Shown here: piece after piece, positions 20,708 to 64,000 of the stretch | Numbering within the stretch: position 1 is the stretch's first letter | Layout of the letters: every line of letters starts with the position of its first letter | From: Psammoneis japonica | Lineage: Eukaryota | DNA: 64,000 bases | Assembly: GCA_008632985.1 (NCBI GenBank) | Contig: QPGO01000182.1 | Location: 1-64,000 of the forward strand | Direction of reading: 5' to 3' | Translations under genes and position numbers: made by a program | Notes under the pieces: generated by a model | The model's database searches: none | Seen by the model: only the letters and a program-made list of their open reading frames with translations | What the model was told of the DNA's origin: nothing

Positions 20708-21641
20708 CACGACCTATCGTGAAACAAGTTGCATGTTCAGCAGAAAGTCAGACTGTGATGAATCTATGCCTACATGCGACCATTGCATTCTTTTTTTCAC
20801 GAAGTGATTGTTCTGCGTTTCGAGAGTGGGTTGGTTGCTGCTGGGAAGTCAGGTCGGGCGATTTGGATTCAGGATGAGGATCGCGTCAGAGGTTGGGGCT
20901 TTGAACTTTCGAAGCCTGGAAAGCCGGAGAGGAGTGGGCTTGTGACTGACAGAGTTAGTGGACCAGGTGCAGAATGGCATAGTTCCTTTATGCACCTGCA
21001 TCGGGTCGGTCCGAATCTCTCACTGTAATGCCAAATGGCTTCATTAGAAAGCTCATTGCCATATCTGAACTCTACAGGAAGGGACCGGGGATTGCTCGTA
21101 TATTCTAAGTAACGTCGTAGTAGGTTTTATGTTTCCCATAATGGTACTGTGAGAAAAAGTAATCATGGCACTGCACTCACTTTAGCTTCGAGAATCCTCT
21201 CCAAAAGCGATACTGGCTCAAAATATCTGATATTAAATTACTTGAGATACTAAACAATAATTAAGCCTGAGATTATACTCTTCTATGATAGTACCAAGTC
21301 CTTTCTGGTGTCTTTCCCAATACGTTAAAATCAATCTTGAAGCAGAAGGCCATTGCGATGACGATGATTCATGCGGATTTACGGCTACTATAATAATATT
21401 CAGTACGGATTATTTCATATAACGATCACATCCGTTGACGTCCATTTCCCAGAAATCATCGCCACATCCACCGCACACACAACATTCACAACGATGCACG
21501 TTGAAGAACAGCGCAGCGAACGAGAACCCTCGTCTCTGCATGTGCTGGTTCTCATGTTGTAGAGTAACGTCCAACGTGATACAGTAATCCTCATTGGCGT
21601 GACCTTACTACAGAGTATTGGTACGAATTGCTTAATCCGTC

Positions 21642-41500: not shown

Positions 41501-44344
41501 AGAAACCCACATGCCCATGCCAAGTTGTCTCAGCAGACCAACTGGCATCACCAACACAGGGGTTGATTGCTCAAACAACCAGATGACTGCTGACAACCAA
41601 ATGGCACAAGTGCACTGTGGTGTGTGTCAATCAATGTTCCAGATTGGGGTGCATGCACCTGCAAAAGACAGCATTAGCAGAGACATCAGAGGGCAAACAC
41701 ACTTTCAAGCAATGCACCAAGAGTTGTGGCATCACAGTCAAAGCCTGTCATCATGCTGACAATGGCATGTTCAAGGCAAACAACTGTGTCTTTGCATGTG
41801 GAACACAGGGGCAATGGCTCACCTTTGCAGTGGTGGGACCCACCATGCCAACAGATTGGCTGAGCACTGAACATGCAAACTCCAAGAACTGGCAAGAAGC
41901 ATGTCAATGCTGCATGCTCAAAGCCATTGGAAGAAGGCAATCACAGCAAGCCTGTTGCCTCATGTGACATGAATAGCCAACAATGCGTGCAACAACACAC
42001 CCAGTTTTCAAAACAATTGCAAGTTGACCCCACTGCAGATGTTCTCCAAGACCCAAGTCTGCAAACACAGTGCACATTCTGGACAGCACATTGCAATCTA
42101 ACCTGCCACATCACAAAGGATGAAAAATTCAAGGGTTTGAGTCTACTCAGGCCAAAGCCCAATGCATGGAAAGAACATGGGCACTCGCATTGGACCAAGA
42201 AGCCACTGCTCCAGTCAGCCCACAGTTCCATGTCAAATTTGATCCATCCTTCAACATGGTGCAGCAGGATAAAACTTGATTTGCAATGGCAAACCAAAGC
42301 CAGTTTTGCAGCTGAGAGGGAGGCAACAAAGGCCAAAACCAGTGGAGCAGTCAAAACGGCGTCCACACCAGCTCCAATCAAGAAGAAGCATGAGGCAAAT
42401 TCAAAGGGAGCCAAGCAAGGCAAGAAACAATGAAAACATGTCCAATGGACTGACCTGCAAGATTTGGAGCCACAACAGAGTGGCAACACTCAGTGGCCGC
42501 TGGCCAAGTGGCATCAGGGTAAAATGCTCCACATGCACAACCTTGAGAGCATGGAACCACACCTGCAACTGAATCTCTGGAAGTGGCTCCAAGCAAGCGC
42601 AAGTCTGACAAACACAAAGTGGTGCCAATGCAGCCAAAGTGACTCTCATTCAGGGTGTAAGAGCCAGCTGGTCAGCAGACTGACAGAAGCCATGACATCT
42701 GAAATCAGCTCTGAAATGAGGAGCGACATCAAGGGTGAGACAATGTGTTTGGCAGCCATGTGTCCCCAAGACTCGCAAGTGCTCCAAGAAGATGAGAATC
42801 CCCTCCTTGCCTGCAAAGCATCAGCAGATCCTGATGCCATGCATGTGCATCAAGCTGTGAAGGAACTGGGTTGCATGCAGTTCCTGTGGGCCATGCAAAA
42901 AGAGGCAATGGATCAAACATGGAAAATGGTGACTTCTCCATTGTTCCACAATCACAAGTGAAAAGAGACAGCAAAAGGTGCAACCAACAGGCCGGAAGAG
43001 TGTGGAACAAGTGTCTGGTCAACAAGCTTGTCAACAAGCTTGGATTCAAGCAATGAAAAATTGACAAGTGTGTGTTTTACCATGGAAAAAACATTTGCTC
43101 TCCTGTGCACAGATGACTCACTCATTGTCGGTCCTGATGAGAATGAAACAAATCACATCATTGAGGAACTCAAAGAGGCAAAGCTTGACATTGCTGTGGA
43201 AGGGTGCACACAGGATTTTCTGGGTGTCAACATTGTGAGAAAAGATGATGGCACTGTTCATTTGACACAACCACACTTGATTGACAAGTTGCTCAAGAAC
43301 TTGTGGTTGGATTTGCTGAGTGCTGTGCCTGAGGATGTCCCTGCAACATCCTCCAAAATCTTTTCAAGGCAGTGTGACTCAGAACCATTTGATGGTTTCT
43401 TCAACTGCAGATCTGTGGTTGGCAAGCTGAGCCATTTGGAGAAATGCACTCACTGTGGTGTGCATCACCTGCCAATGTGCATGGTTCATGGCAGATCCAA
43501 AGGTTGAGCATGGCAAGGCCACAAGATGGCTTGGTTGGCAAGCATGTGTGGATGCAGACTTTGGTGGCAATTGGGATCTGCAAGAAGCAGGCCAAGATTG
43601 TGACACTGCAAGGTCAAGACATGGCCACATCATTGCTTGCACGGGGGGGGTTGTCCCATTTTGTGGAAATCCCAGTTGCAAACTGAGATTGCATTGAGCA
43701 GCATGGAGTCTGAATGCACACAGGCTTGTCATGTGCCTTGTGAGAAGCCATGCCCTTGAAGGAGATGCTGAAGGAACTCAAGCAGCATGGATTTCCCATC
43801 AAGACATCCAAGCCCAAGATGCATTGCAGAGTGTTTGAAGACAACAGCAGTGTGCTGGAGATGGTGCGTGCACACAAGCACAGACCATGAATGAAGCACT
43901 TGAATGTCAAGTTGCATCACTTTGGAGACTGCATCACATGGAAGGAGATTTCAACACACAACACAGACACCACCAAGGACCAACTGGTGGATCATCCAAC
44001 TGAACCCATTGCAGCTAAAATCTCAGAAGCCCTGCATCCTTTGGTGATGGATTGGTGAGTTTCCCAAGTGCAAGGAAACCCTCTGAGAATGCCTCACTCT
44101 GATTGGATGGTTTGACTTGCAAGACACATTGAGAGGGAGTGTGAAGATTGTCAAATTGTCAAGACAGTCATTGTGATGCACTGTTTCAATGATGCATGTC
44201 ATTGGGGCCAATGTCATTCAAAAGACCTGGAGGAGGAGAGGTTGAGAGCCTCCTCTCCTCACAACCTCAACTCAGTTGCTGCAACACCAGCACCCAGCAT
44301 CACCCCACATCAATTGTGCATCATCAAACACCATCTGTTGACCA
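38552..44344 (+). mobile_element. Degenerate Ty1/Copia LTR retrotransposon
   Basis: ~203-bp LTRs at 38552-38754 and 44142-44344; PPT GAGAGGGAG at 44131; gag remnant ~38870-39700; IN HADNGMF; RT LCTDDSL, DFLGVNI; RNase H CVDADFGGNWD, RSRHGHII, VFEDNS, KHLNVKLHHF; possible TSD GGCTC/TGCTC. Confidence 0.88.
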
Positions 44345-47300
44345 TGCTCTGGATGTCACAACACCAGAGCAGCCCAAAAGGTCCTGGAGCATGTGTTGGA
44401 AACTGCCCTTGCTGGTGCAGTTGGTTGCTCTCTTTGTTGTTGTTCACATTGATTTGAGAATGATGTTCTCTCATGCAGCATCTTTTTTTCTTTCAAATCT
44501 TAAATCAGGGTGTGGCACAAACTGTTGCCAATTGGAAAGAGGCCTTGCAAAAAATAAAAGAATTCACATGGGATGACAGCATGTGTTGAAGCCACCATCG
44601 ATGACCCAATTTCAAAAGAATGCACACCAAAGATGCAATCCCCCACATTGTCAGAGCACAGATGGAAAAGCATCATTCTTGGCACTCCACACCAATGTCA
44701 CTGCTGCATCATTTCTTCATGGCAATGGTGTCCATGCAGCATGGCTTTCAGAGCTTTGACACTGAGGAATTTTGCAACTCTGAGCAATGCATTGGACTGA
44801 CATCTTGAGTGCCCCACACCCATGATGCTTCCTGCTGTCTGCACTCTGTGCCATTTCCAAAGTGCAAGGTCAAAAACAAATTGTTTGAGTTTGATCTTTG
44901 GGTGTGATGTTGAGCCTTGCTCATGATGCCACAGGAGCAATGTTGTCCAACAGTGGCACCTCCAAAACAGCACCAGCCCACCACCACAGAAGAAGAGCTC
45001 ACCACAACCAGTCAACATCCATGGCTCATGACAATGACAAAGGCAAGGCCTGCTTTGTGGAGTTGATTGATCTCATTGAATTAGAAGGTGGCATCCATTG
45101 ATGGATGCGCTGCCACTGTTGATTGTTTGACAGACAGAAGCCAAGGGTGTGGGCAAAGAATCACAGAGAGATTGCCCTTGGATTGTGCCGGTGATGTCTT
45201 GGATGCCTTGTTGACAAAGTTTGAATGTCCACAAAAGCATGGGGCTTGTCTTGATCTGGCTGAATTGGCAGGATGGGGACTTCCCTTGCCCAATCACTTT
45301 CAAGAGGTGCTGCCAGTTGTTGTGAAAGCAAAAAAGGCAAGACTGGCAAAGAGCATGGCATCAACTCATGATGTTGTGCAGGTGCTCACTGAAATCAATT
45401 GTTGCTGAGCTGCAAGTGCTGTTTTTCAGGAATGCATTGGTCAACAGAGAGGGTGCTGATGTGAGCATGGCATGGGTGGAGACATGCCAGATGGCTTTTG
45501 GCAGTTGCGCGCTTGTCATGTTGATCATTTTTCTTAACTGCTCTTTCACATCTGCAGAACTTCAAGCACAGCATTTCCATTCTCACTGTGGTGGACAACT
45601 GCACTCCTCATCAGTGGCACAACGGACAGGTGGCTCAGCTTGAACACTGTCATTTGCCACCTGCGTGGTCAGGCAAGATTTGCCACTGGGATGCTGGATG
45701 CCCGCCATTTCTTCATCATGATGGTCCTGTCCTTTCTTCACATTTCAGCTGACCTCTGCAATTTTCCCACTGCTTGTTTGTTTCCAGCTTGTGGAGAAGC
45801 TTGACTCAATTCAGCTGCACACACTGGGAAGCTGCCTCTTCCTTCTGCAAGAATGCTCTGCAATCTGTTGGATGCCAGATTTCACCCACTGAGATCCAAG
45901 CAAAGCTGCACCAGCAGGACTGTTCATTGACAAGGAAACACACATGAGAATGATTGGAGTGTTGTGCTAAAGAGCAGGTCTGTTGATGCATCATGCCACT
46001 GAGTGCAGCAGTTTCTGTCACAGACACAGGGGCTGCACTGGCACCCAAAGCCGGTGCTTTCATTGGGATGGCACATTTGGAGGAGGAGCTGGAGAGATGG
46101 AAGCATCCAACTGATCTCCTTGCAATGGACTTGGTGTCATCAAAGAGGGCATCACACCACCAAGTGCATCAGCAGGGGGACGGTGCTGGCATCACAGTTG
46201 ATGCCTCCTCCAAAGATGTCTGCATTTCTGCTTGTTTCAAGAGCTGTCACCAAAAGGCTGCAGCAGTGTCAGAGTGTCATGGCAAAGGCTCTGACACAGT
46301 GGAGCACATGCTGGCTGGCTGTGCCCCTCACATTTTGTGAGCCTGTGGCAGAACCAGCTGCACCACACTGTGCGCTCCACATCAAAATGGCGGCGCAGGT
46401 CTGCTGGCTGAGGGTGGCAACAATTTCCTTCAAGCAACTGCAACAATCCATCTTTCCCCCTTGTTGGGAGAAGCCCAAGCATGCAAGGAACTGATCTCCT
46501 TGTGATGGAGTTGATGGCATTGTCAAAAAGGGCATCGTGCCACCAAGTGCATCAGCATGGCAGGATGCGGCACTGGCCACTGTGTTTTTTGGTCGATGCT
46601 TCCATTGATGGCACAGTTGGAGGAGCAGGGGATGGAGAGATCAGAGTGTCCATCTGAAGATTGACTTGATGATGTTGTCAAGGAGGGTGCAGCACCACCA
46701 AGTGCATCAGTTTCCGTCATCGGAGTGGGGCCATGGCGCTCTGGCACCAAAGTCATCGTTTTTCCTCTGGTTGCACCATCTACAAAGTCGAAGACATCTC
46801 AATCATTTGTGCATCCCAAATCCTCATGAATGAAGATCTTGCATTGCTGCATTTTGGCACCTGTGTCTGGTGTCGGAATTTGAAGATCGCACTGCCCAGC
46901 ACAATGGCGGATTGTTGTTGGCACAAGCCACATCGGACTTTGGCATCTTTGGAGCACAAGCATTGATTGTTTGTTCAGGAGGTCAATGGAAAATGTTGTT
47001 GCAATTGCAGTCATCCACTGACAGCTTGGCTTCTCCCCACCAGCTTGAGGCCATTCTCATGGGTTTTGCTGGGAAAGCAGACCATGTGAGTGCACTCTTG
47101 CATCACAAAACCACGGACATCAGCAATGTCAATGAAGATGGAGTCCACATTGACAACGTGACAATGCACACCAACAGGGGACCATTCGGGTTCGAAATCA
47201 AGTGGGCACCTGATGGCCAGGATTTGTCCGATGAGTGCCATTGTGTGGTGCAGTCTGTCATCATTTTGGTGGATGCGACAACTCAAGGTGATGTCCCCAT

Positions 47301-50300
47301 GTGGCAGGACAAGGTGCTTCATCTGTGTGGGAGCTCCACCCCATGTTCAGTGGCCTGCAACACGGACCAGGACAGCAGCGCGGCCACCTGAAAAGTCAAA
47401 ATCGATGAGAATCTTGTGGGACATTGGCATGCTTCACTGCTCAGTGGCATTCACTTCAGATGGATCCATGTTGACAAGATTCCATTGGACCAGCCAGTCT
47501 CTTTTGACAGTCAGAGTGCAGATCTAAGATGAAGACAACAGTCCATCTGTTTGGATTCACTTGCCACTTCCCTTGTTCCAGAACAACAATTTGTCAATTC
47601 CCCAATGGTTTCCTCTGACTTTTAACAGTTTGAAGCAGGGACATGGCAGCATGACAAACAATGGGGTTCTTTGGAGATTGCAATCTTCTTCCTGCATCCG
47701 GTGGTTTTGGGAAGAGGGAGGTCGATTGAAAGACAAAAAGGCATGGCCAGTGCGAGAAACCCCAGTTCATTGGAAAGCACTCCCTCTTTCAACTTGTGCG
47801 TGTGTGTTGAAAAAGCAAAAGCCATTCATTGGTCATTGTTGTGGAGGTGCACAAAGTTGCCATTGTACATTCCCATGATGTGTGGCCCTGCCGTGATGAC
47901 TTACGATGACGTGCTTGGTTCAGCGGGTGCGGCCTCGTTCTTGTTGTTTCCTCTTGGTTGGTTTTGTCCTCGCGGCGCTTTTTGGGGTTTCCGGGGATGG
48001 ATCATTTGGATGCTGCCGGCACTGCTCATGATCTGGAACAGAAAATGCTTCTTCCTGCTCACTCTTTTAATGCGCCTTGACACAAGTCTCATGCCAACGT
48101 GGGGTTGGCCACACGAGCCCCAGCAGAAGTTAAACACACACTGGCCAGCTGTGCTTTTGTGAGCCTGGCCCTGTGTCAGAATCATCTGCCACATTTTGCT
48201 GCACTCCATCTGTGTGATTGAATCCATCAAAACAGTGCAGGTCTGCTGGCTGAGGGTCGCAATGAAATCCTGCAAGCGATTGCAACAATCCACCTTGCCC
48301 CCTTGTTGGGATGAGCCCAAGCACTCAAGGAATGCCGGTGCAACAGGGAACATCAAGCCGCGGCACCCTGCAAGGTCCGCTTCCATGCACGCAATTGGGG
48401 CTTGAGCAGCCCACCATTCTTCCAAGACACGTTTGATGCAGTCGGACATCAGAGTCTGGCGCAACTCCTCCTCTGAGCACACAAGCCATTCGGTTTCCTC
48501 CTTGTCCTCCTCCTGACCATCATCCTCTGCTGGCTTGTCCTCCTCATCACCGTCATCCTCTGCTGGCTCCTCCTCCTTGCACTGTCATCCTCTGCTGACA
48601 GTCCTCCTCCTTGCTGTCATCCTCCAAATGCAACAATGCAAGCACCCACAGGAAGCAAGAACACAGAACACTTCATGTTGTTGCACAATGCCCCTCCCAT
48701 CATGAAACTTGCCTGTCTTGCTGTGATCCTGCACAACAACAAGTCTGGCTCCTTCCATGCTTCCGTTGTTGGCACACTCATCTCCTTCCTCCTTGTCATC
48801 CAGATGCTCCTTGTCATCCTCTAAATGCAACTGCTTCAACACACAAATGAAGCAAGAACAAACAATGGCGGCTCTTGCATGCACAATTGCACAATGCCAT
48901 GCCAACACTGGCAGCAAAACTCACTTGTTGCCAAGGCGTGAAAGAAGTGTTCACAAGCATGGGCCAACATTCTTGCACCATCGTCCAGAAAGTTCAGAAA
49001 TGTCTGGTTTTCATCGGCTTGTTCCATGACCTCCTGTTGTTTGCACAAAATTCCAATTCAATGAAACCAACCTGTCACCTCCGTGACAGTCAGTTTGTTG
49101 TGTCTGTCTCATCCCAGTGGTCTGCATTGTTGCTGTGTGACATGTCAGAACCCCACTTCATCTGCCATGGGTGCAAAAGGTTGCCAATGCTCACTGGTGC
49201 ATCACATTCTGGAGAAAGAAGGAATGTCTGCATGTGGTGGATCAGGGATTGGTGCCACCCATGGTGGTGAAGCTGCCACAATCATGCACATGCTCAATGA
49301 GTCCGGACCCAATGCTTGGTTGGGACTTGGTCATTCAAGCAGACCCACAATGTCAACTTGACAAGATTTGTCCACTTCACAAAGAGCATCTGACAATTTC
49401 ATGGGAATGGGCTGTGAATGCCACCCTGAGAACCACACATGATCAGCATGACTGGGTTGTGATTGGTTGGCGACTCATTTTCACCGGCATTGTCAGCTGG
49501 CAATGTCAAAAAGCATCCGCAAGAAGTTGCTGCATGGAAGGTGCAAAGCAGCACACTTGGAGCAACAGGGCTTGAGACAGAAGAGCAGAGAGTCTTGAAG
49601 TGGTGCAGCTCAAGACTCTCACATGATGACTTCAATTGGAGCACATTCAAGCACGGGAGAGGATGGAGCAGACAACTGCACTTTGCTTGGTGCTGCACTT
49701 GGAGCTTGCAATGGTGTCAACAATGGCGCACTGCTGTTTGGAGCAGCTGATGGAGTGATGGATGGCCCATCACTTGGCACAGCTGAAGGTGCATGTGATG
49801 GTGCATCATTGGGTGCAGATGATGGGGTGTCTGATGGTGTGTCACTGGGAGCTGTGATCCAGGCTTCAGATGGGGTGACAGATGTCAGGAAAGTTTCTGG
49901 CAGACAAAATCAAATTGCCACTTTTTGTGAACAACAACCAGACTGTAAGGGCAAGGTGGCAAACCATTTTGTGACAAAGCCATGTTGGATGAAAAATTTT
50001 CAAGTGCAGCAAAGGTGCAGCTGTTGAACAAAATGAACTCACTGAAAATGAGTGGCCTGACTGGCACAGCATCCAATTTGTGACACTTGTTTCTTCTGGA
50101 GTTTCTTGCAAGAGGCAAATGTGTGGGAGCTGGCAATGACATGCAAATGTGCAATGCCCCTGACAAATTGCACCAATGGGGGCATTTGCTGCCAACAGCT
50201 TCACATTGGAAGCAACAACAAGTCAGACTGTGGATGTCTGTCGTGTGCTTTGGCTGATGAGAACAGGATCTGAATCTTCTGTCTGTTGTGGCCAATGACC

Positions 50301-52966
50301 AAGGGACACCTGTTGGGAATGACTCTTGTTTCTGTCACATCTCACATGTGACAAATGTGTGCAGAATGCATGGGGCAAATGCACACAGACTTTTGTGCAT
50401 GGTTGCACCAGCAGGGCCATGGGTGGCTGCTGGGTTCACATTGGAGCACCAATTGCCACTCACCAGGGTGCCACATGGTGTGCATTGTTGCATCGTACAC
50501 CAAGGCTTCTCTGGCTCAATTGCAAAGACATGATGCCTGCAAGCACTGGAGCACAGCAGACACTTAAGAAGAGGTCAATGTTGAGCCAGCAAAAAAAATC
50601 CAAAAAATGAAGAACGTCAGCAAACAGAGTTGCATTGTCAAATGTGATTGCTTGAATGACACTCCAGTTGTTGCACATTGTTGAATTTGCAGCACGTGTT
50701 GTCTCCAACAACCTTGTCAACTGCCTTTCTTGCAACCACTCTTGATGTCATGGATCTTTTGTTGCTTTGTGTTTTTTTTTTGATTTTTTGCACAGGTGGC
50801 ATGTGCTGTCCCCCATTTTTAAAATGTCCAGGTCTCCATTGTTTGGCATGCTCCTGAAACAGTTTGGTGTGGTGCTCTTGCTCTTTGCTCTCTGCTTGTT
50901 GTTCATGCTTGCACTGCTCCACACACTCTGTGTGATTGTCTGCCTCCTGGTCAGTCATGATCCTGATGAGATCTTCTCAGAGCCAAACATCCATCTCCTC
51001 CCGGTGGCAACACTCAGCCTGAATGACCCACAATGGTGGTGTCATGGGAGCACTTGGTTGGCGCATGTGATGTGGTGGTGGCACAAGCATGATGCCCAGC
51101 TTTGCCAGCTTGTCATGGTTTTGCCTGTTGTGCCAAAAACAAGCTTCTTCCAAGCCTCCTGCCACACCTTCTTCTCAGCTTCCTTCTTGGCTTCTTCCTT
51201 TGGATCAAGCTTCTTCAAAGCTCTGTGTTTCTTTTGTTGCAATGTCTTGTCTTTGGGGGCACATGCATTGCAATGGTGCACTCTGATGGCTGTTGGAGTT
51301 TTGTGGAGATCAATCAATTGGAGTTCTCATCAGGTGCAATGCAAGTTTGAGTGATGTTCCACATGCAGAAAGCTCTCATGCAAGAAGCCAAGGCCTTTAA
51401 AAACAATGGCGTGCTGATGCACATGTGCATTTTGCACATCCAAGTTCACTTCATTCAGTGCTTTGTGCTCTTGCACAAATTCAAAACAGAGTTGATGTCA
51501 GGGTCACTGAAGCAGCAGGCCTGGTGCATGCTGATGTGTCACAAGCACATTTTGTGTGACAAGAATGTGTGAAACACCACATGATGTGACGTCATCACTC
51601 TCTAAAAAAGATTGTGCAACAAGCTGAACAAGTTTCTGTGTGCAACCATGATGAACACACAATGACTTTGGCAGCAACAACAAGCAAGTTTGTTCTCAAT
51701 GGCACATCAGAGTGTTGTCAAATGATGTTCTTTCCTTCATTGCAACACACAGCATTTTTGGATTAAAGCAGCTCAAAATGTCTTGCTTTTGGCTTGCGTG
51801 CATTCATGCAGGACTGGTGCAAAATCCCACATGCTGCCAGTCCAAGTTGCAACTTGACAGAAGCCCTGCTTCAATGAACTTGGGTTGAGGTGAAGTCATT
51901 TGATTGTTTTAAAAAGCAGCACAGTGAAATTTGGACAAGAGCACCACTTTCAATGCTTCTGATCATGAGACAGATGATGGACCATGTGTGGTGAGGCATG
52001 AGCACTCAAGGGCAAGTTTCATGACATTTTCTTTCATGGTGGTGCTCACAAAATTGATTGTTTTCAACACATTTGTTGTCTGGGTGAAGTTTTCTTGCCT
52101 GTTGTTTCAGAAAAAATGAGGGTCAGAAGAACAGCTGACACCTGCCTCCTTGAGCTCCAGTGACCACAAATTTGCCACAATTGCTGTGGAATCTGCACCC
52201 AAATGACTGGTCAGGAGTCACCAGGTCCACCAGAGAAGGACACCAACAGCTTGCAATTAAAACAAACCAATGAAATTTGAACCAACTGACAGCCAAAATG
52301 GCCACGGTTGTCAGTGACCATGATGGCCCGCTTTTTTCAACCTTGTGGAAAATTGAATGACATGATGAGGACCACAGCATTTTATGCAGTCTGTGTCATC
52401 AACAACAACAATGATGGAAATGCTTGTTGCAGGCTGCAGCACTGCTCAAGAAGCCAAAAATCTGTTGGCAACAATGCAATTGAGCCTCGCTTCAAAATCA
52501 CAATTTCATCCATGTCATTGAATGACACAAGCACTTCAGTTGTTCATGTTGATGAAAAGATGAAAAAGGTTCCAAAGTCAATGCTGTTGCATGAGCTGAG
52601 TTTAATTTCTTCTCATGTCTTCTGAACTTTTTTCATCAGCGTGTGTCTCATTTGTTCTGTTGAGAGCAACTTGCACTGAAGTGTTGCAACAAAATGTCAT
52701 TTGCAAATTGTGAAAGCATTCACACAAGAGAAGATTTGCTTTGTCTTTTCATGTGCACATTGTTGGGATCACAGATTGCTCATCAGAAAACTGAGCTCCC
52801 ACCTTGTGTCACCTTTTGGCAATCAACAACTCACCCCACCCTCAGGATGATTCTCAGCTGGACAATTTGACATGCTGGTGGCAGGGACTGTCAGAACGGC
52901 CATGGACAATGTGGTGTCAACCTTTGGGTTTTACAACAGGAAAGACCCAAGGTTGGAAAAGGAAAG

Positions 52967-53660
52967 ATGAAAAAACCAAGATGGACAGCAGAAGCAGCAG
53001 AAAGTGATTGCTGTTTCCCTCCTCCAGGCTCTGTCCCAAAACCAAACGACATGCAAAGATGTCACGGCAAGCCAACTCTAGCCATTGGTGTCTGGTTCTT
53101 TGCCATGAGTTTCTGTGAGCACTCGAAGACCAAAGGCGACCAACGAACCAAGCTGCTGACCCTCAAGAATCTCTGCTTCTTCCAAGACAACACCAAACTG
53201 CAACACAAAGACCCAGACCTGGCCTCAGCTGATGCCATCTCCATCACCTTTGAGTGCCAGAAGAATGATGAAAGATGTGACACTGTCACAATGTTTTGCA
53301 CCGGAGACAACTTGCTCTGTCCTGCCCATGCATGGGCAGCAGTCAGCAGTGGTCCATTGGGCACTGTTCTGACCACCAGGCTCTGTCCCAGACTCCCCAG
53401 TGTGCCCTGTTTGCACCAATGGAAAACTCCACTCTCTCCTCCTCAGTCATCCATTCCAAGATGCAAGCAGCAGCAACTGTGATCAGCAAGGACAAGAAGC
53501 CAGGCTGCAAAGCTCATGAGGTTGGTGCTCACTCCATTTGCTCAGGAGCAGCCATGGCAGTGTGTCTTGCACATGCACCTGTTTGCTTGATCAGCATCAA
53601 TGTCTCTTTGCAAATGATCTCAAGTGCCAACATTTCTTTGCAACATTCCGGACTCTGACC
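52967..53660 (+). pseudogene. Tyrosine recombinase remnant of a YR element (DIRS/Ngaro/Crypton-like)
   Basis: FFAMSFCEHSKT...SITFECQKND...LCPAHAWA and EVGAHSICSGAAMAVCLA match degenerate R-x-x-E and H-S-x-R-x-G-A-A motifs. Confidence 0.75.
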
Positions 53661-53875
53661 CCAAAGATCCTGGAACCTGCAATCGCCACAAACTCCAAGC
53701 CACTGATGTGAGCAACGGCACATGTCAAGTGCAGTTGATGGCACAACTGCAATCATTTGCTCTCTTCACTTGAGCGGCTCAGATTTCAGCAATCAGATTG
53801 AAATTTTGCAAGTGAGTCATGAGGGTGCATCAACTGCAGCACTGTCGGGTCCCTGGGGGATCATTCACACTGGGG

Positions 53876-54303
53876 ATGAAAATTTCTCCAGGCCAAACCA
53901 TTGGGTTTTAATGTCAGACTGTTTGCACTCGGGGCTGGAGTCCGCGACCTGTGGTGAAGACTTGGTTGGATGGGCCATTGTTTGATCAGACCATGTGGAT
54001 GCATTGATTCTTTCAGCCGGCGATGCACACAACATTCGGTGAATTCAATTTTGCGCGCCGATGTCAACAGTCATTTCTCAACGACTTTGGAAGTTGTTGG
54101 CGAAGCTGTGACAATCATCGTCGTGCATTGCAAGCTCTGTCGAGTTGTCTTGGTCTTCTAAATTCCCCAAACCCACCCTGCATCAACAACTGCGGCGTGT
54201 CAGGAATGAAAATTTCCCAGGCCAAACCGTCAGGTTTTCACGTCAGACTGTTCGTTTCGGGATTGGAACCCGCGACCTGTGGCGAGGACTTGGTTCGATG
54301 GGT
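53876..54303. repeat. ~100-bp direct repeat pair (53876-53976, 54206-54303)
   Basis: ATGAAAATTTC..CAGGCCAAACC...GTCAGACTGTT...CCGCGACCTGTGG.GA.GACTTGGTT.GATGGG occurs twice. Confidence 0.8.
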
Positions 54304-54499
54304 CGATGGGTCGATGGGTCATCGACGAGCGCTGCAGAGCGCACGAAGCTCATCACTTTCTTTGCGATGCTCCGCGCATGTGGCGCGCGCTGAAGATCCG
54401 AGCGTTTGTCCGTCGTCCGTCCATTATTTTCTCCGCGTTGCTTTTCTGTCGCCCAGTCACACAATGGCGGTCAAGTTGAGGAGAGACAAAAGTCTAACC

Positions 54500-55460
54500 A
54501 TGAGTCGATATCTACAAACTCTTGTGTTCTTGTTGAGCCTTTTTGAGTTTGCAGGGGCTGTTGGGCCCTATTTTATTCTTTCCAATACACGTCCGAAATG
54601 CTTTTCCGTCGATGTGCCCCGTGGTACCAAGTTGAGTGTCGAGTACGATGCTCCAGACATGGTAATCATGTCGACTGAAGATGCAATCAAGGGTAACAAC
54701 CGAGATATGAATCGGGAAATTGATCGAAATTTGGGGTTGGATGCGAGATATGATAAGCGATACAAGGAAAGAATGGCGGAAATGCAGCGTGCGGTACGTG
54801 AGGAAACAGTGCAGGCTGGGAGTGCGGAGCTGAGCACTCGTTCCGTTCTGTTGTATTCTCAAACACATCCTTTTATCGTTTCTTTATAAACTGTAGGGTA
54901 AGATTATGAGAGACATGTCAATCACTATCCAACCAAAAGGAGAGACGCTCAGGGATGCACGAGAGGCACAACGAAGAGACAGCCCATGGGGTAGCCGTGG
55001 CCCCACCACCAACCGATTGCGGGAAGATTTAATAGAAAGACAGGGGTCACTCGATTACGAAACTGGCGATCGGGACGGTGAGATTGAGATTTGCGTCCAG
55101 AGTATGAGTGCAGCGCAAAAACATCCTTGTCGCTTCTCCCTTCGCGTCGACCAAAAGTCGACAACAATTCGGCGCAATCGAGAGGCCCGAGCGCAAAAGC
55201 AAAAAGAGTCACGAGAAACGGCAGAGCGGCACTTGACACGAATGGAACGTGACTTAGTCTCATTGACGGAAAAGGCAGCGGTTGTGCTGTCAAACGCAGA
55301 CTTTTCCAAGGATCAAGAGGTGGACTTTCACGAAAAGTCGCTCGCTCTGAACAAGTCGAGTCAGTGGTGGCCCATTCTTCACATTTTCATCATTCTCGTT
55401 GCTGGAGTATTGCAGGTGAAGCATATGTTGCGTTTCTTTAAAGCAAGGCATATTTATTGA
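54500..55460 (+). CDS. emp24/gp25L/p24 (GOLD domain) family protein (intron 54794-54896)
   Basis: Signal peptide, PKCFSVD, EIEICVQ, coiled coil, QWWPILHIFIILVAGVLQV TM and FFKARHIY tail. Confidence 0.85.
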
Positions 55461-55882
55461 GAAAGTGGCGGTTCAGTGGTATGGCTCACGTCCGACCTCG
55501 ACTTAGATTTTCAACTGCACTTCTGGTTGACTTGTGCTATCCACACTGAGCAAAATAGTACCGGGTAGAAGGCGCTGCCTCTTGAAACGCCATAAATCAT
55601 CTCAGAGGTTCTAAACCCTTTGGTCTACTGAAACCGCAGCCTTTAATTAAACATATATTGTAACCTACAGTATTGCTATTGATCACGCTCTGATTGTGAG
55701 AAGACGCACTACATAACATATACATACCCGCAACGGGAGGTTACTCTATTCTGCGTTATCGACGCTACATTCGTTCACTACACGATATAGGTAAGCTCTC
55801 AGGCTATGAGAAAAAGAAAAACTATAGTTTGCGACCAAAGCGGGACATTGTCCACTCTATTCTACTGGCAACAAGAACGCTT

Positions 55883-58399
55883 TTAGTCAACCTGTTCCAT
55901 AGCAGATTCCTCATTGTCATCGTCTCCATCCAACGGGGGCAAGTCTTCCATATCATCATCCATCTCGTCCTCGTCATCATCATCAATCGAAAGACCAAGC
56001 TTGACAAGACGGTGGATGCGCGAAGCAAAGGTGGCGGGCTCATCAAGAGAGAATCCACTCGTGAGAAGAGAGGTATCGTAAAGCAACCAGATAAGATCCT
56101 TGACGGTCTTGTCGCTCTGGTCAGCGTCAGCCTTTTCACGGAGAGCGGTAATGATGGAGTTGGTGGGGTTGATCTCCATGGTCTTCTTCGAACTCATGTA
56201 GGCAGACTGAGAGGCGTCACGGAGAGCCTGAGCCTTCATGATGCGCTCCATATTGGCGGTCCATCCAAACTCGCCCGTAACAAGGCAGCAAGGAGAGTCA
56301 GCGAGACGGTTGGAAATGACAACCTTCTCCACCTTATCATCGAGAACCTCCTTCATGAGCTTGCAGAGACCCTCCGTCTTGGCCTTGGCCTCCTCGAACT
56401 TCTTCTTCTCTTCCTCGTCATCGGCAAGGTCGAGTCCTTCCTTGGTAGCACTGAGAAGTTTCTTTCCGTCAAACTCCTTGAGCTGCTGGACAGCGTACTC
56501 GTCAATAGGATCGACAAGGTAAAGCACCTCGTATCCCTTCTTCTTGAGCTTCTCAAGGAACGGAGAGGTTTCGACACTCTTCTTGGACTCTCCAGTAATG
56601 TAGTAGATACCGGGCTGCTTGTCGTCCATGCGGCTGACATAGTCCTCGAGCGAGGTCATCTCGTCACCACTCTTGGTGGAGTAGTAACGCAAGAGCTTGG
56701 CAATCTTGGCACGGTTGGTCGAGTCCTCGTGAATACCAAGCTTGAGGTTCTTCGAGAAGGCCTCGTAAAACTTCTTGTAAGCATCCTCGTTCTCGGTCAA
56801 GTCGTTAAACATCTCGATACACTTCTTGACGAGATTCTTCTTGATGACACGGAGAATCTTGTTTTGCTGAAGAGTCTCACGAGAAATGTTGAGAGGCAAA
56901 TCCTCCGAATCGACAACGCCCTTGATAAACTGCAACCACTCGGGCATGATATCCTCGCAGTTGTCCATGATAAAGACACGACGGACGTAAAGCTTAATGT
57001 GGTTGAACTTCTTCTTGGTTCCACCCTCAAACATATCAAACGGAGCGCGCTTGGGGCAGAAGAGAATCGCCTTGAACTCGAGCTGTCCCTCGACGGAAAA
57101 GTGCTTGACGGCCGCGTGCTCCTCCCAATCGTTGGAAATGGACTTGTAAAACGCCACATACTCGTCTTCGGTAACCTCGTCCGGCTTGCGCATCCAAATG
57201 GGCTTGGTGTTATTGAGATGCTCCCACTCGTGGCTCACCTCCTTGATCTTTTTCGTTTTCTTTTCCTTCTTCTCCTCGTCCTCGTCAACTTCTTCGACCT
57301 TGGGCTTGTCCTCGTCGCCCTCTTCTTCCTCCTCGTCATCATCGTCGGAATCAGTCACTTCCTTTTCGGTAGTCTTCTCCGTGTACAGCATAATGGGGAA
57401 TCCAATAAACTCGGAATGCTTTTTGACCAAATCCTTGATACGCCTCTCCTCAAGATACTCCGACATGTCCTCCTTGAGGTGAAGAACGATACGAGTACCA
57501 CGTTTGAGTCCGGCATCGGGCGAGTCGGTAATGGTAAAGGATCCACCGGCTTCGGACGTCCACGTGTGGCACGAGTCGTCATTGTTCTTGGAGACAACCT
57601 CCACCTTGTCGGCGACAAGGTAGGCGGAATAGAAACCCACACCAAACTGTCCAATCATGGAAATATCGGCACCGGCCGAGAGGGCCTCCATAAAGGCCTT
57701 GGTTCCGGACTTGGCAATGGTTCCGAGGTTGTTGATGAGATCGGCCTTGGTCATGCCAATTCCGGAATCCTCAATCGTCAAGGTGTTGTTGGCCTTGTCG
57801 GCAATCAGCTTGATTTGCATTTCCGAGTCCGAATCCAACACGGTGCTGTCCGTGAGAGACTGGTAACGGATCTTGTCGAGCGCATCGGACGAGTTGGAAA
57901 TGAGCTCACGAAGGAAAATCTCCTTGTTGGAGTAAAACGTGTTGATGACTGTTGAAAGAGAGTAGAGAGAGATGAAATGGAGGTTAGTCGCGGTATTTTT
58001 CGAAACACGCGTCTCGGAGGGAATTTACGAGTACCGGTTCCTCCGTAGATTTCTACGGGAGAAAACGCGCGAAACTCTCCGAAAGATTTTTGCGTCATGG
58101 TCAATCAACACAACAACAAGTACTTACTCAACGAAAGGAGCTGGTTGATATCAGCCGAAAAGGCATAGCTTTCAGCTTCAGCAGACTGTAAGTAAAGAAA
58201 GGTAGAGGAAGCGAGTGGGTGAGTTGCGTGTCTATTACAAACGCGTATGATCCACGAACAGAGCAGGAACAAAAGCAATGCCATGCACACGAACACTGTC
58301 CGCCAGCGCAATCCTCGCAGTCGCCATTTTCACCTCCAATTCATAGATTGCTGTCATGTACAACAGATCAGATCATTGTCAATCCTTTTCACGTACCAT
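55883..58399 (-). CDS. HSP90: Cytosolic heat shock protein 90 (exons 58399-58397, 58185-58128, 57948-55883)
   Basis: [53 protein letters not shown]-terminal MEQVD. Confidence 0.97.
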
Positions 58400-58905
58400 G
58401 ATGAAAGATGGGTTTGTTAGTTGTTCGAACGGCTGAGGTTTTGTTGTTACGAAAAACAATGAGATCATTTGGCGCCGGGCTTTCGTGGTTCTCGGTGGCA
58501 GATTGCAATCGAGGCTCGTAGCCATTGACTGACGTCCTATACCAGAATCACGTAGAAATGTACATACACGACTCTATCGTGGCTTGATTGGTACACATCT
58601 CTCTTCGAGTTTCTACAGCCGTCTCAGTACATTTTCTACGCAAAAGTACAGCATTGGTTCGATGGATTTCGAGGGCCTTCTTTTTGCGCGCGAAAAATCC
58701 AAGACTCACGAAGGAATCAGTAATGAATTTGAGTATGTACGTTTTATACCATGCCCACGTACGTACACTTTGGTAGGCATTCTACACAGTCAAAGATTTC
58801 GTGGCTGCGATCGATTTCGCTCGAGCGACTGGATTTGCTCATAAAATTTCTAATAGGAGGAAATTGCTGCAACAGTAAGAATTGATAAAAGACAAGAGTA
58901 ACATT
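58400..58905. promoter_or_regulatory. Putative bidirectional promoter shared by HSP90 and HSP70
   Basis: 506 bp between the divergent start codons; only gapped or imperfect nGAAn/nTTCn units visible. Confidence 0.6.
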
Positions 58906-59777
58906 ATGAGTGGTAAGTTCAGCAATGGCGTTGATGATTGAAATGGGGCTCGGAAGATTCTGTTGTGGAGTGATTGCGACCATACGGTATGGCAGTGGCG
59001 CATCTGATTTTGCGATCTTTTTGCGCTTGCGCGCTACGTCACGGCTGTCAGTCGAGTCATTGTTGTTCTTAAGGTGCCGGCTGCGCTTTTCGAAGCAATG
59101 GTTGACAATGGCTACACTTTTGTTGTCGTCGATGCGGTTCATCATGCCGCTCAGCGACGATGAGGAATCTTTGTGTTTGTTCCTGCGATGCTTTCTACGT
59201 GGCGTTTGTACCAGATTCTACGCAGTTGGTCCTCGCACTGTATTGTTTTTCGATTCACTTTCGGTAATTTTTCAGAAAATTTACTCACCGTTTTGTTTCT
59301 GTTTTACTCTCTAAAACCATTACAGCTGTAACTGGAGAATCAGTCGGTATCGACTTGGGTACCACGTATTCGTGCGTGGGTGTCTGGCAAAATGATCGCG
59401 TTGAGATTATTGCCAACGACCAGGGTAATCGTACCACTCCCTCGTACGTTGCCTTTACCGATACGGAGCGTTTGATTGGTGATGCCGCCAAGTCGCAGGC
59501 TGCCATGAATGCTTCCAACACGGTCTTTGATGCCAAGCGTTTGATTGGACGCAAGTTTTCCGATCCCGGTGTTCAGTCCGATATGAAGCACTGGCCCTTT
59601 ACCGTTGTGTCTGGTACGGGTGGTACTCCCATTATTGAAGTGGACTACAAGGGCGAGAAGAAGTCCTTCAAGGCGGAGGAGATCTCTTCCATGGTTTTGG
59701 GAAAGATGCGCGAGATTGCCGAGGCCTACCTTGGCAAGGAGGTCAAGAATGCCGTTGTCACGGTGCCGGCCTACTTT

Positions 59778-59813
<36 letters not shown>

Positions 59814-61289
59814 TCCATCTCGGGTCTTAATGTGCTTCGTATTATCAACGAGCCCACGGCTGCCGCCATTGCTTATGGTTTGGACAAGAAGGGCGAGGAG
59901 AAGAATGTTTTGATTTTTGATCTCGGTGGAGGAACCTTTGATGTTTCTCTCTTGACGATTGAAGAGGGAATCTTTGAAGTAAAGGCTACCGCTGGAGACA
60001 CCCACTTGGGTGGAGAAGATTTCGATAACCGCATGGTGGACTACTTTTTGACCGACTTCAAGCGTCGCCACCGCAAGGACATGTCGGAGAACCAACGTTC
60101 TCTCCGTCGTCTCCGTACGGCTTGCGAACGTGCCAAGCGTACCCTTTCGTCCTCGACGCAGGCACACATTGAGATTGATTCCCTCTACGATGGTATCGAC
60201 TTCAACGCCACCATTACGCGTGCCCGTTTTGAGGATCTCTGTATGGATTACTTCAAAAAGTGCATGGAGCCCTGCGAGAAGGTTCTCCGTGACGCCAAGA
60301 TTGCCAAGAACCAGGTGCACGAGGTTGTCTTGGTTGGTGGATCTACTCGTATCCCCAAGATTCAGTCCATGCTTTCTGATTTCTTCAATGGCAAGGAGCC
60401 CTGCAAGTCCATCAACCCCGATGAGGCTGTCGCCTACGGTGCCACGGTACAGGCTGCCATTTTGTCTGGCGCGGACAAGTCCGAGAAGCTTTCCGAGCTT
60501 TTGCTTTTGGATGTCACGCCTCTCTCGCTTGGTCTCGAGACGGCTGGTGGTGTCATGACGACGCTCATCAAGCGTAACACCACGGTGCCTGCCAAAAAGA
60601 CTCAGACCTTTTCGACGTATGCGGATAATCAGCCCGGTGTGTTGATTCAGGTCTTTGAGGGCGAGCGTTCCATGACTCGTGATAACAACCTGCTTGGCAA
60701 GTTTAACCTCGATGGCATTCCTCCCATGCCTCGTGGTCAGCCCCAGATTGATGTCTGCTTTGATATTGATGCCAATGGTATCTTGAACGTGTCGGCCCTC
60801 GAGAAGAGTACCGGTAAGGAGAACAAGATTACCATTACCAACGACAAGGGTCGTTTGTCGCAGGACGAGATTGAGCGCATGGTTGAAGAAGCCGAAAAGT
60901 ACAAGGCCGAGGACGATGCCAACCGCAACCGTATCGAAGCCAAGAATGGTTTGGAGAACTACTGCTACTCGCTCAAGACGTCGATTGACTCGGAAGAGGT
61001 CAAGGACAAGATCCCCGAGGAGGACAAGACTGCCTTGACGACTGCCATTGATGAGGCTATCTCGTGGTTGGATGCGAACCCTACTGCTGAAAAGGAGGAG
61101 TACGAGGAGAAGCAGAAGGCTTTGGAGGGTGTGGCGATGCCGATTCTTCAGAAAATGGCCGGTGCCGGTGGTGCTCCCGGAGGTATGCCTGGTGCGGACA
61201 TGGGCGGTATGCCCGACATGGGTGGAGCCGGTGGTGCTCCTCCGGCCGATGACCCTGCTGGTGGGCCAACAATAGAAGAAATTGATTGA
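58906..61289 (+). CDS. HSP70: Cytosolic heat shock protein 70 (exon 58906-58912, intron 58913-59325)
   Basis: Spliced N-terminus [44 protein letters not shown] repeats; C-terminal GPTIEEID. Confidence 0.97.
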
Positions 61290-61293
61290 GCAA

Positions 61294-64000
61294 ACGCTGT
61301 TGGTTGCGAAAGAGTCGTTGTCATGGTCGTCATACATGTCGGGCTTGGTGTGGTTCTTTTTTACCAAACTTCAGTCTTTTCGGTTTTAGGTGACTGTGCT
61401 TTCACTACTTTAGAATGATGTTTACTTGATATATCGTTTATGATCTTCTTTGTGCTGTGTGTGTAAAATGTGTTCTCTAATACAATGTATCATCAGCATG
61501 GTAGCAGGACTCGACTATCAGTAAGTGCGAGGTAGCGGTTTTGAACCGGCGAGAAAGTTGGTGCATGATGGACGCCATCGTCGGCACGACTGGTGATGCT
61601 GGGAGGACACCTGCCATTGTGCGTCTGAGTTCAACTCTGTCGCAACATTGTCCGGTGTGATGGCCTCTAGAGTAGAGTGGAAGGGTAAGACCAGCCAATC
61701 TCACGGCACCTGTTAAAGGAAATGGCAAGCAAAGAACGAACGGCGACTGTCATGTGAACGCGAACCTCATTTCACTGATCCTTTGTGCCTTTTCCAAATG
61801 ACAGGAGCAATTTCATCAAATCAACTGCAGTTCTGCAGTGCTTTACATTCATCGCGATCCCACAAGAGGACCGCCTCGCCAAGGGGAAAGCCACAAGTTT
61901 GCTGAGAAACATTTTTGGCCGACACAAATGATGGACAATCCAACGCCACATGTCGGCAATGTGTCTGGCAGTCAAAATGATGGAGCACAGCAATCAAACG
62001 TGGTCACATGCTTGCAACATGACTGGCACATCTGGCGAGCGGCTTCACAAGCCACAGTGGCACTGGCGGGAGACGTCGCAGTTTCCTGGGATCAAGGTTC
62101 CTTCTTCAAGGATGGGCTTCATGTCAAAGACACCGGTGAAGTGGACACAGCAGCACCTGCTGAATCCGCCAACACAGTCGGCGCCATTGCCAGCCTTGCA
62201 CCACAAAATCTTGATGGGACAAGGGAGATGGTCGTAACGATTCTGCATCTTTTCTTCAAAGCGCTTGCAGTCAAACTGCGAGAGGCTCTTGAAGATCTTG
62301 AACGTGAAAAAGCCAACCTCCTTGGCCTTGGGGACGTTGAGGTGACGTTCATTTGGCAAGGTGACTGGAGCAACCTGAGTGGAGTCAAAAGCAACCTGTG
62401 ATCTGTTTGTCCCTCCAATGCCACGAACCAAAAAGTCAAAAGCTTCGAGATCCAAGAGATGCTGCTTGGTGATTCCAATGCAAGCACCAAAGTCGAAGTC
62501 ACGGCTCATGACTTCGTCCACCGTGCGACCACCGAGCTCGGGCCACTTCTTGACTCCACACAAATGCTCGACGGCTTCATCGAGAGCTTTGTCAGACATG
62601 CGCCGACCGCTGGCAGCAATCTGGATGTTCATCTCGTCAATCTTGCGGCAAGTGCTCTTGCGACGGCGAGATTCGCGGCAACTCATGTTGGTCTTTTTCA
62701 CGAAACTCACCATTGTCACTTAGACGCTGGCGCTTGTTGGACTCGTTCAAGTTGGCAATCCTTTCGCATCCATCCTGCAGCTGAGTCGACTTGGTGCAAT
62801 CAATGCTCTTGGTTCCAATGCTGCCGACGGTGCCATCGCAACGTTCGACAGCCGCCATGTCCACCTTGGCAGGAGCAAGTTGGGAGATGCGCGATGTCAT
62901 GGCTTGACAGAGAGCTTTGTCGTTCGGTGGGGTGACACCAAAATGCTTGTAGACGGTCTTGGCAGATTCAACAATTGCGGTGATTTCCGACTTGGGTTTG
63001 TTGCGACGTTGCGTGGTGGGGTCACGCCACTTGAGATCGAGCATGGCAACAACATTGAGAGCGTCAAGATGACTCATGAGTCCAATGCTTGCACGCAGGA
63101 TCTCCAGCCAAGCCAAGAATGGTGGGAGGGTGCGTCTTTCCATCAATTTCCTTGACTCCCTTGATTTCCTGTGGTGGGAAATTGAACAGCTTGGCACACT
63201 TGTTGACACCGGCTTGCGTCAGCTGACCGCAGACGGAGACAGCACGCAGTTTCGCTTTCTCTTCTTTGGTGTGCGGGCGCGGCTTGGTCATGGCAAGTTG
63301 CTGTGTTTTTTGCTTTTGCTGTTGCTGCGGCTGTTGTTTGTGCTGATGGAGTTGTGTTGTGTGTCGGTGTTGATTGTGGCGGCCGCGGCAAAATTCGCTG
63401 CGTTGTCTTTGCATGATGGAGAAGCGCCGTTCAATCCAGTGCGGCGCTCCACCTGCTTGTCACACTTGGACGCAGGCTGCGCATTCCCGTCGGCACAAAA
63501 TCCCCGCCAAAGGGATTTTTGAATCGACCAGCACTGAGGTGCTGTGCGATTGAATGCGCACTGGCCATCTTGTTGGTTGTGGCAGCAATTCTACGCGCGG
63601 GTTCCGCTGTTGCGTCTTTCCCGCCAAGAAGTTTTTTGGACCAACCGCGTGGTTGCTCGTGGTTCTGTCACGGAGTCATCAATTCATGGTTGTGTTTGCA
63701 TGGAAGAATTGACAAATCTCATCATTCGTTTTACGCTGTTGGTTGCGAAAGAGTCGTTGTCATGGTCGTCACACATGTCGGGCTTGGTGTGGTTCGTTTT
63801 TACCAAACTTCAGTCTTTTCGGTTTTAGGTGACTGTGCTTTCACCACTTTAGAATGATGTTTCTTTTGACTTTGTGCGCGCATGGCATCTCATTCTTTGT
63901 GCTGTGTGTGTAAAATGCACTCTCCAATGCAAGGTTTCATCAGTGTGGTGGCAGGACTCGACCATCAGTGAGTGCGAGGTGGCGGTTTTGAACTGGCGAT
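61294..64000. mobile_element. Repeat element with long direct repeats (from 61294 and from 63733 to window end) enclosing a degenerate minus-strand ORF
   Basis: ACGCTGTTGGTTGCGAAAGAGTCG... repeated at 2439-bp spacing; interior is TpA-depleted with broken ORFs 61772-63414 (-). Confidence 0.65.

Follow-up and report, generated by a model that had tools for sequence, protein, structure and literature searches.

Place-dependent loss of TpA in a direct repeat behind HSP70 in the diatom Psammoneis japonica

The first 64,000 nucleotides (nt) of contig QPGO01000182.1 of the diatom Psammoneis japonica (assembly GCA_008632985.1), hereafter the window, end in a direct repeat, one copy of which (copy 1) forms the 3' flank of a cytosolic HSP70 gene, and the other (copy 2) lies farther downstream, beyond a decayed orphan gene referred to here as gene X. 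The two copies differ in one direction at the dinucleotide TpA: sites that read TA in copy 1 read CA or TG in copy 2, and almost all CpGs are common to both. The pair shows that loss of TpA is separable from loss of CpG and follows location, not sequence or copy number. The best explanation, and one that is considered probable, is that TA was the ancestral state, that copy 2 lies in a tract hypermutated at TpA, and that copy 1 lies in the TA-normal margin of HSP70. The coordinates of all features are collected in Table 1.

Differences between the two copies of the repeat

In the alignment of 61294-61552 with 63733-63999 (same orientation, 267 columns, 88.0% identity, BLAST E 1.7e-89; copy 2 is incomplete and runs into the window end), the copies are distinguished by 24 substitutions, 18 of them transitions and six transversions, plus an indel block. 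Copy 1 has T and copy 2 has C at 61333/63772, 61406/63845, 61478/63925, and 61516/63963, and copy 1 has A and copy 2 has G at 61482/63929, 61503/63950, 61523/63970, and 61534/63981. At all eight sites TA in copy 1 faces CA or TG in copy 2, as had been stated in a preliminary description of this DNA. Two more columns of the same kind, in the indel-rich block 61423-61445, are alignment-dependent; the global-alignment tally is five TA/CA and five TA/TG columns (copy 1/copy 2). The reverse arrangement, with TA in copy 2 and CA or TG in copy 1, was found at no site of the repeat alignment. A sign test gives p=0.0078 for the 8:0 split and p=0.002 for 10:0, and the chance that at least eight of 18 randomly placed transitions would fall on TA bases of copy 1 is 0.0011. 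As a control, a duplicate in normal DNA was used, formed by two ion-channel paralogues, whose alignment contains 179 substitutions (98 transitions), TA-versus-CA/TG differences divided 5:10 between the copies, a single CA/TG swap, and 26 shared TAs. Differences of the TA type account for 10 of the 24 substitutions in the repeat versus 15 of the 179 in this control (Fisher p=8.5e-5).

The four TAs of copy 2 are all common to copy 1, and 13 of the 17 TAs of copy 1 are gone from copy 2. It had also been claimed that most CpGs are shared, so that the pair isolates the TpA class from CpG decay, and that the better-preserved copy is the one adjoining HSP70. These claims are borne out: 11 CpGs are common to both copies and one CpG of copy 1 (61547) reads TG in copy 2, and copy 1, with 17 TAs against four, starts 4 nt past the HSP70 stop codon (61287-61289). 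With ancestral counts estimated, copy 2 has lost 76% of its TAs versus 8% of its CpGs, a rate ratio of about 17. Three of the TAs kept in copy 2 stand in TTTA and one in GTAAA, whereas ATA, CTA, and GTA prevail among the eight converted sites (Fisher p=0.06, with small numbers). At 61471-2 and 61497-8 the copies show two CA/TG swaps, which suggest that both copies changed there, so that copy 1 was not wholly immune, or else that these sites were CpGs.

The repeat is a genuine duplication, at least 259 nt long, whose copies are separated by a dead orphan gene. They are spaced 2,439 nt apart, and a repeat search splits the pair into two blocks, the first part of 130 nt at 98% identity and the second of 107 nt at 87%. 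No third copy was found in the 64-kb window by BLAST or by the repeat search. The repeat does not extend upstream into the HSP70 coding sequence, as the sequences preceding 61294 and 63733 align globally at random level and gave no BLAST match. Tandem Repeats Finder detected nothing beyond short, low-score arrays in 61000-64000, and inspection by eye revealed no TG...CA ends and no plausible primer-binding site beside the copies, of which copy 2 is incomplete. The duplication may have originated as a 2,439-nt tandem unit, as an element with long terminal direct repeats, or through repair-associated duplication around an insertion.

Polarity of the TpA changes

The preliminary description assumed that TA was ancestral at the eight sites and changed to CA or TG in copy 2. 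This polarity is supported, if indirectly, by the location of copy 2 in an erased tract and because four further sources of evidence are concordant: a Copia reverse transcriptase (RT), the long terminal repeats (LTRs) of the same element, gene X, and the sequence context of residual TAs. The Copia element lies in another TA-erased part of the window and has the features of the Ty1/copia class (an RVT_2 domain, an LTR pair with TG...CA ends, and a 5-bp target duplication). Its RT was aligned to 13 homologues chosen from the 150 best of 1.84 billion representatives, and columns with Tyr in at least 60% of these homologues were taken as conserved. At the 18 conserved Tyr columns the element has Cys in nine, His in six, and Tyr, Trp, and Phe in one each (His or Cys in 15 of 18), whereas control residues are largely kept (conserved His 11/11, Phe 10/11, Trp 8/9). 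Tyrosine is encoded by TAY, histidine by CAY, and cysteine by TGY. The catalytic motif reads HVDD, the counterpart of the usual form, YVDD.

The LTR pair provides a polarity test of a different kind, since the perfect target duplication indicates that both LTRs were identical at insertion. They now differ by 29 substitutions, all of them transitions, which are distributed as eight CA/TG swaps (16 substitutions), ten CG-versus-CA/TG differences, one TA/TG difference, and two changes directly 3' of a converted TA. Each swap would be the remnant of an ancestral TA that was turned into CA in one LTR and into TG in the other. Swaps are strongly enriched in comparison with the normal-DNA control, where one occurs in 179 substitutions (Fisher p=2.8e-14), and double hits at CpG cannot account for them, because one-sided CpG changes are few (ten, against 12 shared CpGs). 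Judging from the eight visible swaps, some 16 TAs per 276 nt would have been converted in both LTRs, corresponding to an ordinary starting TA content. Estimated in this way, about 92% of TA copies versus 23% of CpG copies are gone from the LTR pair, a rate ratio of about 10. Since the LTRs were converted independently after having been identical, the TpA change happened after integration; judged from this pair, conversion is a DNA-level process that acts on both strands and comes close to saturation. CpA and TpG products appear in equal shares, 5:5 in the HSP70 repeat and 5:3 among the LTR swaps.

Some further details of the Copia element concern the reach and evenness of conversion. At 9379-9380 and 9439-9443 of the LTR pair, TAA faces TGG and TGTGG faces CACAA, so the adenine that follows a converted TA on its 3' side is in some cases converted too, which hints at a weaker activity on this neighbour. 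The flanks of the element are free of TA (0 TA in 510 nt at 8811-9320 and 0 TA in 557 nt at 16998-17554), with a CpG observed/expected ratio (O/E) of 0.09 on the left and 0.40 on the right; either conversion spread about 0.5 kb beyond the element or the element landed in an older erased tract. A patch at 12001-12500 retains 16 TAs (O/E 0.48), so conversion is uneven within a single element.

Gene X, which lies in the erased tract between the two copies of the HSP70 repeat, appears to be interrupted by frameshifts at two points, around 63070 and around 62690. Three homologues of 313-377 amino acids (aa) were found in 5.8 billion proteins, and 13 columns have Tyr in at least two of the three. 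At these columns gene X has Cys in seven, His in three, Tyr in two, and Arg in one (His or Cys in 10 of 13), while Phe is kept in 14 of 15 control columns and Cys in 5 of 5. No Pfam family was assigned to its three frames or to homologue P0121, no relative was detected among viral contigs, and an atlas search gave sub-threshold matches only (0.83). The contigs that carry two of the homologues measure 2,347 nt and 2,529 nt, similar to the 2,439-nt distance between the repeat copies.

Residual TAs in the erased tracts obey a context rule. A precedes 6% of them (27% in normal DNA) and follows 49% (23% in normal DNA), and T follows 6% (25% in normal DNA), with TTA and TAA contexts (TTTA, TAAA) enriched. 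TAs embedded in runs of T or A would thus be converted less well.

These observations bear on the possibility that the differences are a sequencing or assembly artefact, in which modified bases at TpA and CpG in silent tracts were miscalled as CA or TG and the real DNA still reads TA. In some long-read assemblies, modified bases are a source of systematic consensus errors that look like transitions, and the listed sequencing runs all come from one sample, which may be the assembly's own source. However, at eight sites CA in one LTR faces TG in its partner, where a context-driven miscall would match in both; CpG loss is partial, with ten one-sided changes against 12 shared sites; residual TAs follow the context rule; and host open reading frames (ORFs) are intact. 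Of the exact 31-mers sampled from 54001-64000, a fraction of 0.80 is present in run X1; as support for the assembled sequence this is weak, and it is not independent. The same signature has been measured as real mutations in the chlorarachniophyte Bigelowiella natans, according to the available part of a preprint (Mettrop et al., bioRxiv 10.64898/2026.01.13.699255). An artefact, here a base-calling error at modified bases, is therefore regarded as improbable, although it is the main risk to the interpretation.

Erased tracts, host genes and their margins

The window is a mosaic. As a whole it has O/E values of 0.34 for TA, 1.47 for CA, 1.42 for TG, and 0.68 for CG, but about half of it has a TA O/E of 0.35-0.95 and CpG near 1, and the remainder consists mainly of five TA-erased tracts. 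These tracts hold 119 TAs in 31,862 nt, compared with 1,294 in the other 32,138 nt, and have CA and TG O/E values of 1.4-1.9, with borders that are sharp to within tens of bases. CpG is near-absent as well in three of them and is kept (0.8-0.9) in the Copia tract and in the tract between the copies of the HSP70 repeat. The tract that holds copy 2 has a TA O/E of 0.04-0.07.

All recognisable host families are encoded in TA-normal DNA; these include peptidase M50B, a ferredoxin-type protein, an aldo-keto reductase, the two ion channels, 7tm_3, a CAAX protease, a mitochondrial carrier, emp24, HSP90, and HSP70. Whole host genes are TA-normal, together with their introns and promoters, and their ORFs are intact. 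HSP70 itself is 88-95% identical to diatom HSP70s, with no identical entry, and over its full length 88-92% identical to named proteins of Thalassiosira, Phaeodactylum, Cylindrotheca, and Fistulifera. It has no in-frame ATG between the upstream stop and the conserved GIDLGTTYS, so its start is probably in a short upstream exon. HSP90 (reverse strand) and HSP70 (forward strand) occupy 55883-61289 and are divergent around a 1.5-kb TA-normal, CpG-rich spacer.

The TA-normal DNA continues past the stop codons for 244 nt at HSP70, 296 nt at the first ion-channel gene, and about 345 nt at the second, and then ends abruptly; on the upstream side of a gene, it starts about 220 nt before the ORF at 17774. 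Behind HSP70 the dense TAs reach 61533, a position inside copy 1. Because these margins stop 244-345 nt past three host stop codons, the simplest reading would be that silent chromatin is targeted and transcription units are excluded. Both ion-channel paralogues are TA-normal and copy 1 was spared, which indicates that duplication is not the trigger. The suggestion that copy 1 is protected by transcription of HSP70, by open chromatin, or by selection plausibly fits the data, and the reading that copy 2 lies inside a targeted silent tract would fit them equally well.

Selection alone, in the sense that both copies were exposed and that purifying selection on the 3' untranslated region (UTR) of HSP70 kept the TAs of copy 1, appears to be an unlikely account. 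Copy 1 is located directly behind an essential and highly conserved gene, and identity reaches 98% over the first 130 nt of the repeat. However, 13 separate TAs would have to be held against a near-saturated process next door, and two unrelated ion-channel genes have the same TA-normal margins of 296-345 nt. In addition, the normal TA content of entire host genes with introns and promoters points to regional exclusion rather than to selection site by site.

The longest erased tract (36492-54158) has a CpG O/E of about 0.1 over 36.5-54 kb, and many of its 500-nt bins contain 0-2 TpA and 0-2 CpG; TGA is the sole stop codon left in it, hence its many spurious open frames. At the border of this tract a second repeat pair (53873-53974 versus 54203-54302) has one copy inside and one outside, and at four sites the copy in the CpG-poor tract reads TG or CA and the other copy CG. 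The zone 54018-54425 has one TA and a CpG O/E of 1.33, so at that border TA erasure extends further than CpG loss.

Table 1. Positions and properties of the features discussed, in window coordinates (O/E, observed/expected ratio)
Feature	Position	Strand	Properties
Copy 1 of direct repeat	61294-61552	+	HSP70 3' flank; 17 TA, O/E 0.84, normal TpA
Copy 2 of direct repeat	63733-64000	+	Cut at window end; 4 TA, O/E 0.25
Transition zone	61553-61844		4 TA, O/E 0.22; between TA-normal and TA-erased DNA
TA-erased tract between copies	61845-63732		4 TA in 1,888 nt, O/E 0.04; CpG kept, O/E 0.86
Gene X, orphan pseudogene	62045-63414	-	Overlapping frames 63414-63064, 63209-62637, 62719-62045
Cytosolic HSP70 ORF	59355-61289	+	644-aa ORF; TA O/E 0.53, Tyr 2.3%, not hypermutated
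Ty1/copia LTR retrotransposon	9322-16996	-	RVT_2 E 2.2e-20; TA-erased, CpG about 0.8
Copia LTRs	9322-9597 and 16721-16996		Start TGACAG, end CTGTCA
Target duplication	9317-9321 and 16997-17001		CAGGC, perfect 5 bp, flanks Copia
Ion_trans ion-channel paralogues	6923-8511 and 21636-23185		81% identity over 1 kb; both TA-normal
Control duplicate in normal DNA	7356-8375	+	Aligned to 21976-22989, 81% identity
Five TA-erased tracts	8811-17554, 23531-24725, 32220-34587, 36492-54158, 61845-63732		119 TA in 31,862 nt in total
TpA- and CpG-poor 17.7-kb tract	36492-54158		TpA and CpG O/E mostly 0.00-0.15; CA+TG about doubled

Mechanism, known systems and implications

The mechanism that would account for these observations is a local hypermutation of A:T to G:C specifically at TpA, yielding TpG or CpA according to the strand hit, which would act nearly to saturation on chromosomal DNA outside host genes and their short flanks. 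In the simplest chemistry, adenine within 5'-TA-3' on either DNA strand would be deaminated to hypoxanthine; TA is self-complementary, so one activity suffices for both products. Alternatively, a thymine modification at TpA that mispairs with G may be involved, by analogy with 5-hydroxymethyluracil, which is known in other protists.

Several points weigh against placing copy 2 in a hypermutated tract with TA as the ancestral state. The sample is small, with eight clean sites, and the six transversions, the indel block, and the two CA/TG swaps indicate that the pair is not young; copy 1 may itself have been hit at two sites. Copy 2, having lost 13 of 17 TAs, is less converted than the adjoining tract (O/E 0.04), and neither the start of the repeat 4 nt after a stop codon nor the origin of the duplication is accounted for. 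An outgroup was sought in metagenomes: a metagenome scan for a pattern of 24 nt, taken from the core where the copies are identical, gave no matches, and among 80 metagenomic HSP70 loci (retrieved with a C-terminus query, best 84% protein identity) no 3' flank was alignable to 61290-64000, the best flank match being 44 nt (E 0.55). Furthermore, just one of the TA-erased tracts is demonstrably a mobile element (Copia), and of the 97 open frames in 36492-54158, 23531-24725, and 32220-34587, the 60 longest could be assigned to no Pfam family.

The opposite polarity, in which both copies were TA-poor and a C-to-T process at CpA and TpG, resembling the repeat-induced point mutation (RIP) of fungi, gave TAs to the HSP70-adjacent copy, is considered very improbable. 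With two copies the eight sites are in principle symmetric, and transitions predominate among the differences. However, copy 1 has no RIP footprint (TA 0.84, CA 1.34, and TG 1.15, where gene flanks in the window have TA O/E values of 0.40-1.12), no 300-nt stretch of the window exceeds a TA O/E of 1.23, RIP hits both copies, and all polarity tests in the window run in the opposite direction. Comparison with fungal RIP itself reveals several likenesses, as both processes are dinucleotide-specific, produce transitions only, wreck chromosomal mobile DNA, and leave sharply bounded, skewed tracts. They differ in that RIP converts CpA to TpA, whereas in the window TpA is destroyed and CpA and TpG are raised, and in that RIP mutates both duplicates, whereas copy 1 and both ion-channel paralogues are untouched. 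Fungal RIP was rejected on its direction and on the change in one copy only (TA O/E 0.84 versus 0.25).

Methyl-CpG deamination decay also yields TpG and CpA and marks silent DNA, and it is evidently active in the window too, as seen in the low CpG of the 36.5-54 kb region and in the ten one-sided CpG changes of the LTRs. It starts from an ancestral CG, in contrast to the eight sites, where the alternative state is TA. It cannot yield these sites and was rejected; TA loss is about 10 times (LTRs) and about 17 times (copy 2) CpG loss.

Also very improbable is RNA A-to-I hyperediting before integration, acting on a retro-copied segment that carried gene X and the 3'UTR copy: an ADAR-type preference for U before the edited A is cited in the available text of the B. 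natans preprint (bioRxiv 10.64898/2026.01.13.699255) and copy 2 and gene X were converted together, but the Copia LTRs, identical at integration by the mechanism of reverse transcription, were converted independently, about 500 nt on either side of Copia is TA-free as well, the 5:5 ratio of CA and TG products means that both strands were hit, and gene X is without retroelement features. Editing by ADAR (on double-stranded RNA) and APOBEC (on reverse-transcribed DNA) in animals resembles the process described here in deaminating mobile elements with a nearest-neighbour preference. Such edits precede integration and are shared by both LTRs, unlike the independently converted LTRs and affected non-retro flanks of the window; pre-integration editing of the ADAR or APOBEC type is contradicted by the eight CA/TG swaps between LTRs bordered by a perfect target duplication.

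The closest known case is that of B. natans, in which, as far as the available text of the preprint describes it, integrated giant-virus and virophage DNA undergoes TpA-specific hypermutation (Mettrop et al., bioRxiv 10.64898/2026.01.13.699255). In mutation-accumulation lines, the mutation rate of two integrated viral regions exceeds that of the remaining genome about 1000-fold; A to G and T to C make up nearly all changes, every one of them at TpA; and the long-term footprint consists of TpA-poor, CpA/TpG-rich clusters; TpA-depleted coding sequences are enriched in reverse-transcriptase and DDE Pfams (bioRxiv 10.64898/2026.01.13.699255). The authors propose a DNA adenine deaminase, for which the candidate enzyme is not yet found, and the word diatom is absent from the preprint text to the extent available (bioRxiv 10.64898/2026.01.13.699255). 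A full-text literature search, with subscription journals outside its coverage, returned no report of TpA-specific depletion or hypermutation in diatoms.

The window shares with B. natans, as described in that part of the preprint, the A-to-G and T-to-C changes at TpA giving TpG and CpA, the restriction to local tracts, and the depletion of TpA with gain of CpA and TpG. However, B. natans is a rhizarian and P. japonica a diatom, that is, a stramenopile. Erasure is near saturation in the window (TA O/E 0.00-0.07), compared with a Rho of 0.45 in the nucleocytoplasmic large DNA virus (NCLDV) region of B. natans; the older tracts of the window are also depleted in CpG, and tract borders in the window closely follow host transcription units. 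Evidence from the window is comparative, whereas de novo mutations were measured in B. natans. The targets differ as well: integrated viral DNA in B. natans, and in the window the Copia element, the pseudogene of the orphan family, and DNA of no recognisable kind; no viral genes were found among the erased-tract targets. The pattern in the window thus matches a TpA-hypermutation genome defence that, in the literature searched, has been reported just once so far, in this unrelated alga, and here it appears saturated and in a diatom.

It is tentatively proposed, with slightly less than even confidence in all parts of the proposal taken together, that diatoms, like chlorarachniophytes, could defend their genomes by DNA base editing guided by chromatin. 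The enzyme involved, in the simplest case an adenine deaminase, would act on 5'-TA-3' in double-stranded chromosomal DNA; it would be aimed at silent or foreign DNA and rewrite essentially every TpA to TpG or CpA; it would work roughly ten times faster than methyl-CpG decay and, unlike RIP, would not be triggered by duplication; and transcription units would be exempt to about 250-350 nt from the stop codon. In relation to the published case, as far as its available text goes, three aspects would be new: the process works on DNA after integration (LTR test); it can reach completion, removing all Tyr codons and all TAA and TAG stops from its targets; and it respects the borders of active genes and needs no homology trigger (HSP70 repeat, ion-channel paralogues).

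In the annotation of such genomes, gene finders will take TA-free, CA/TG-rich tracts for long ORFs, homology searches will miss the transposons within them, and insertion ages estimated from LTRs will come out too high. If the proposed defence is real, silent or foreign DNA would be destroyed in a second major lineage of algae, one of ecological dominance, by a kind of TpA hypermutation first described in 2026. The HSP70 repeat would then offer a single sequence in both the permissive and the protected state, as a natural pair of reporters, and its short sequence could serve as a reporter in the search for the targeting signal and the enzyme.

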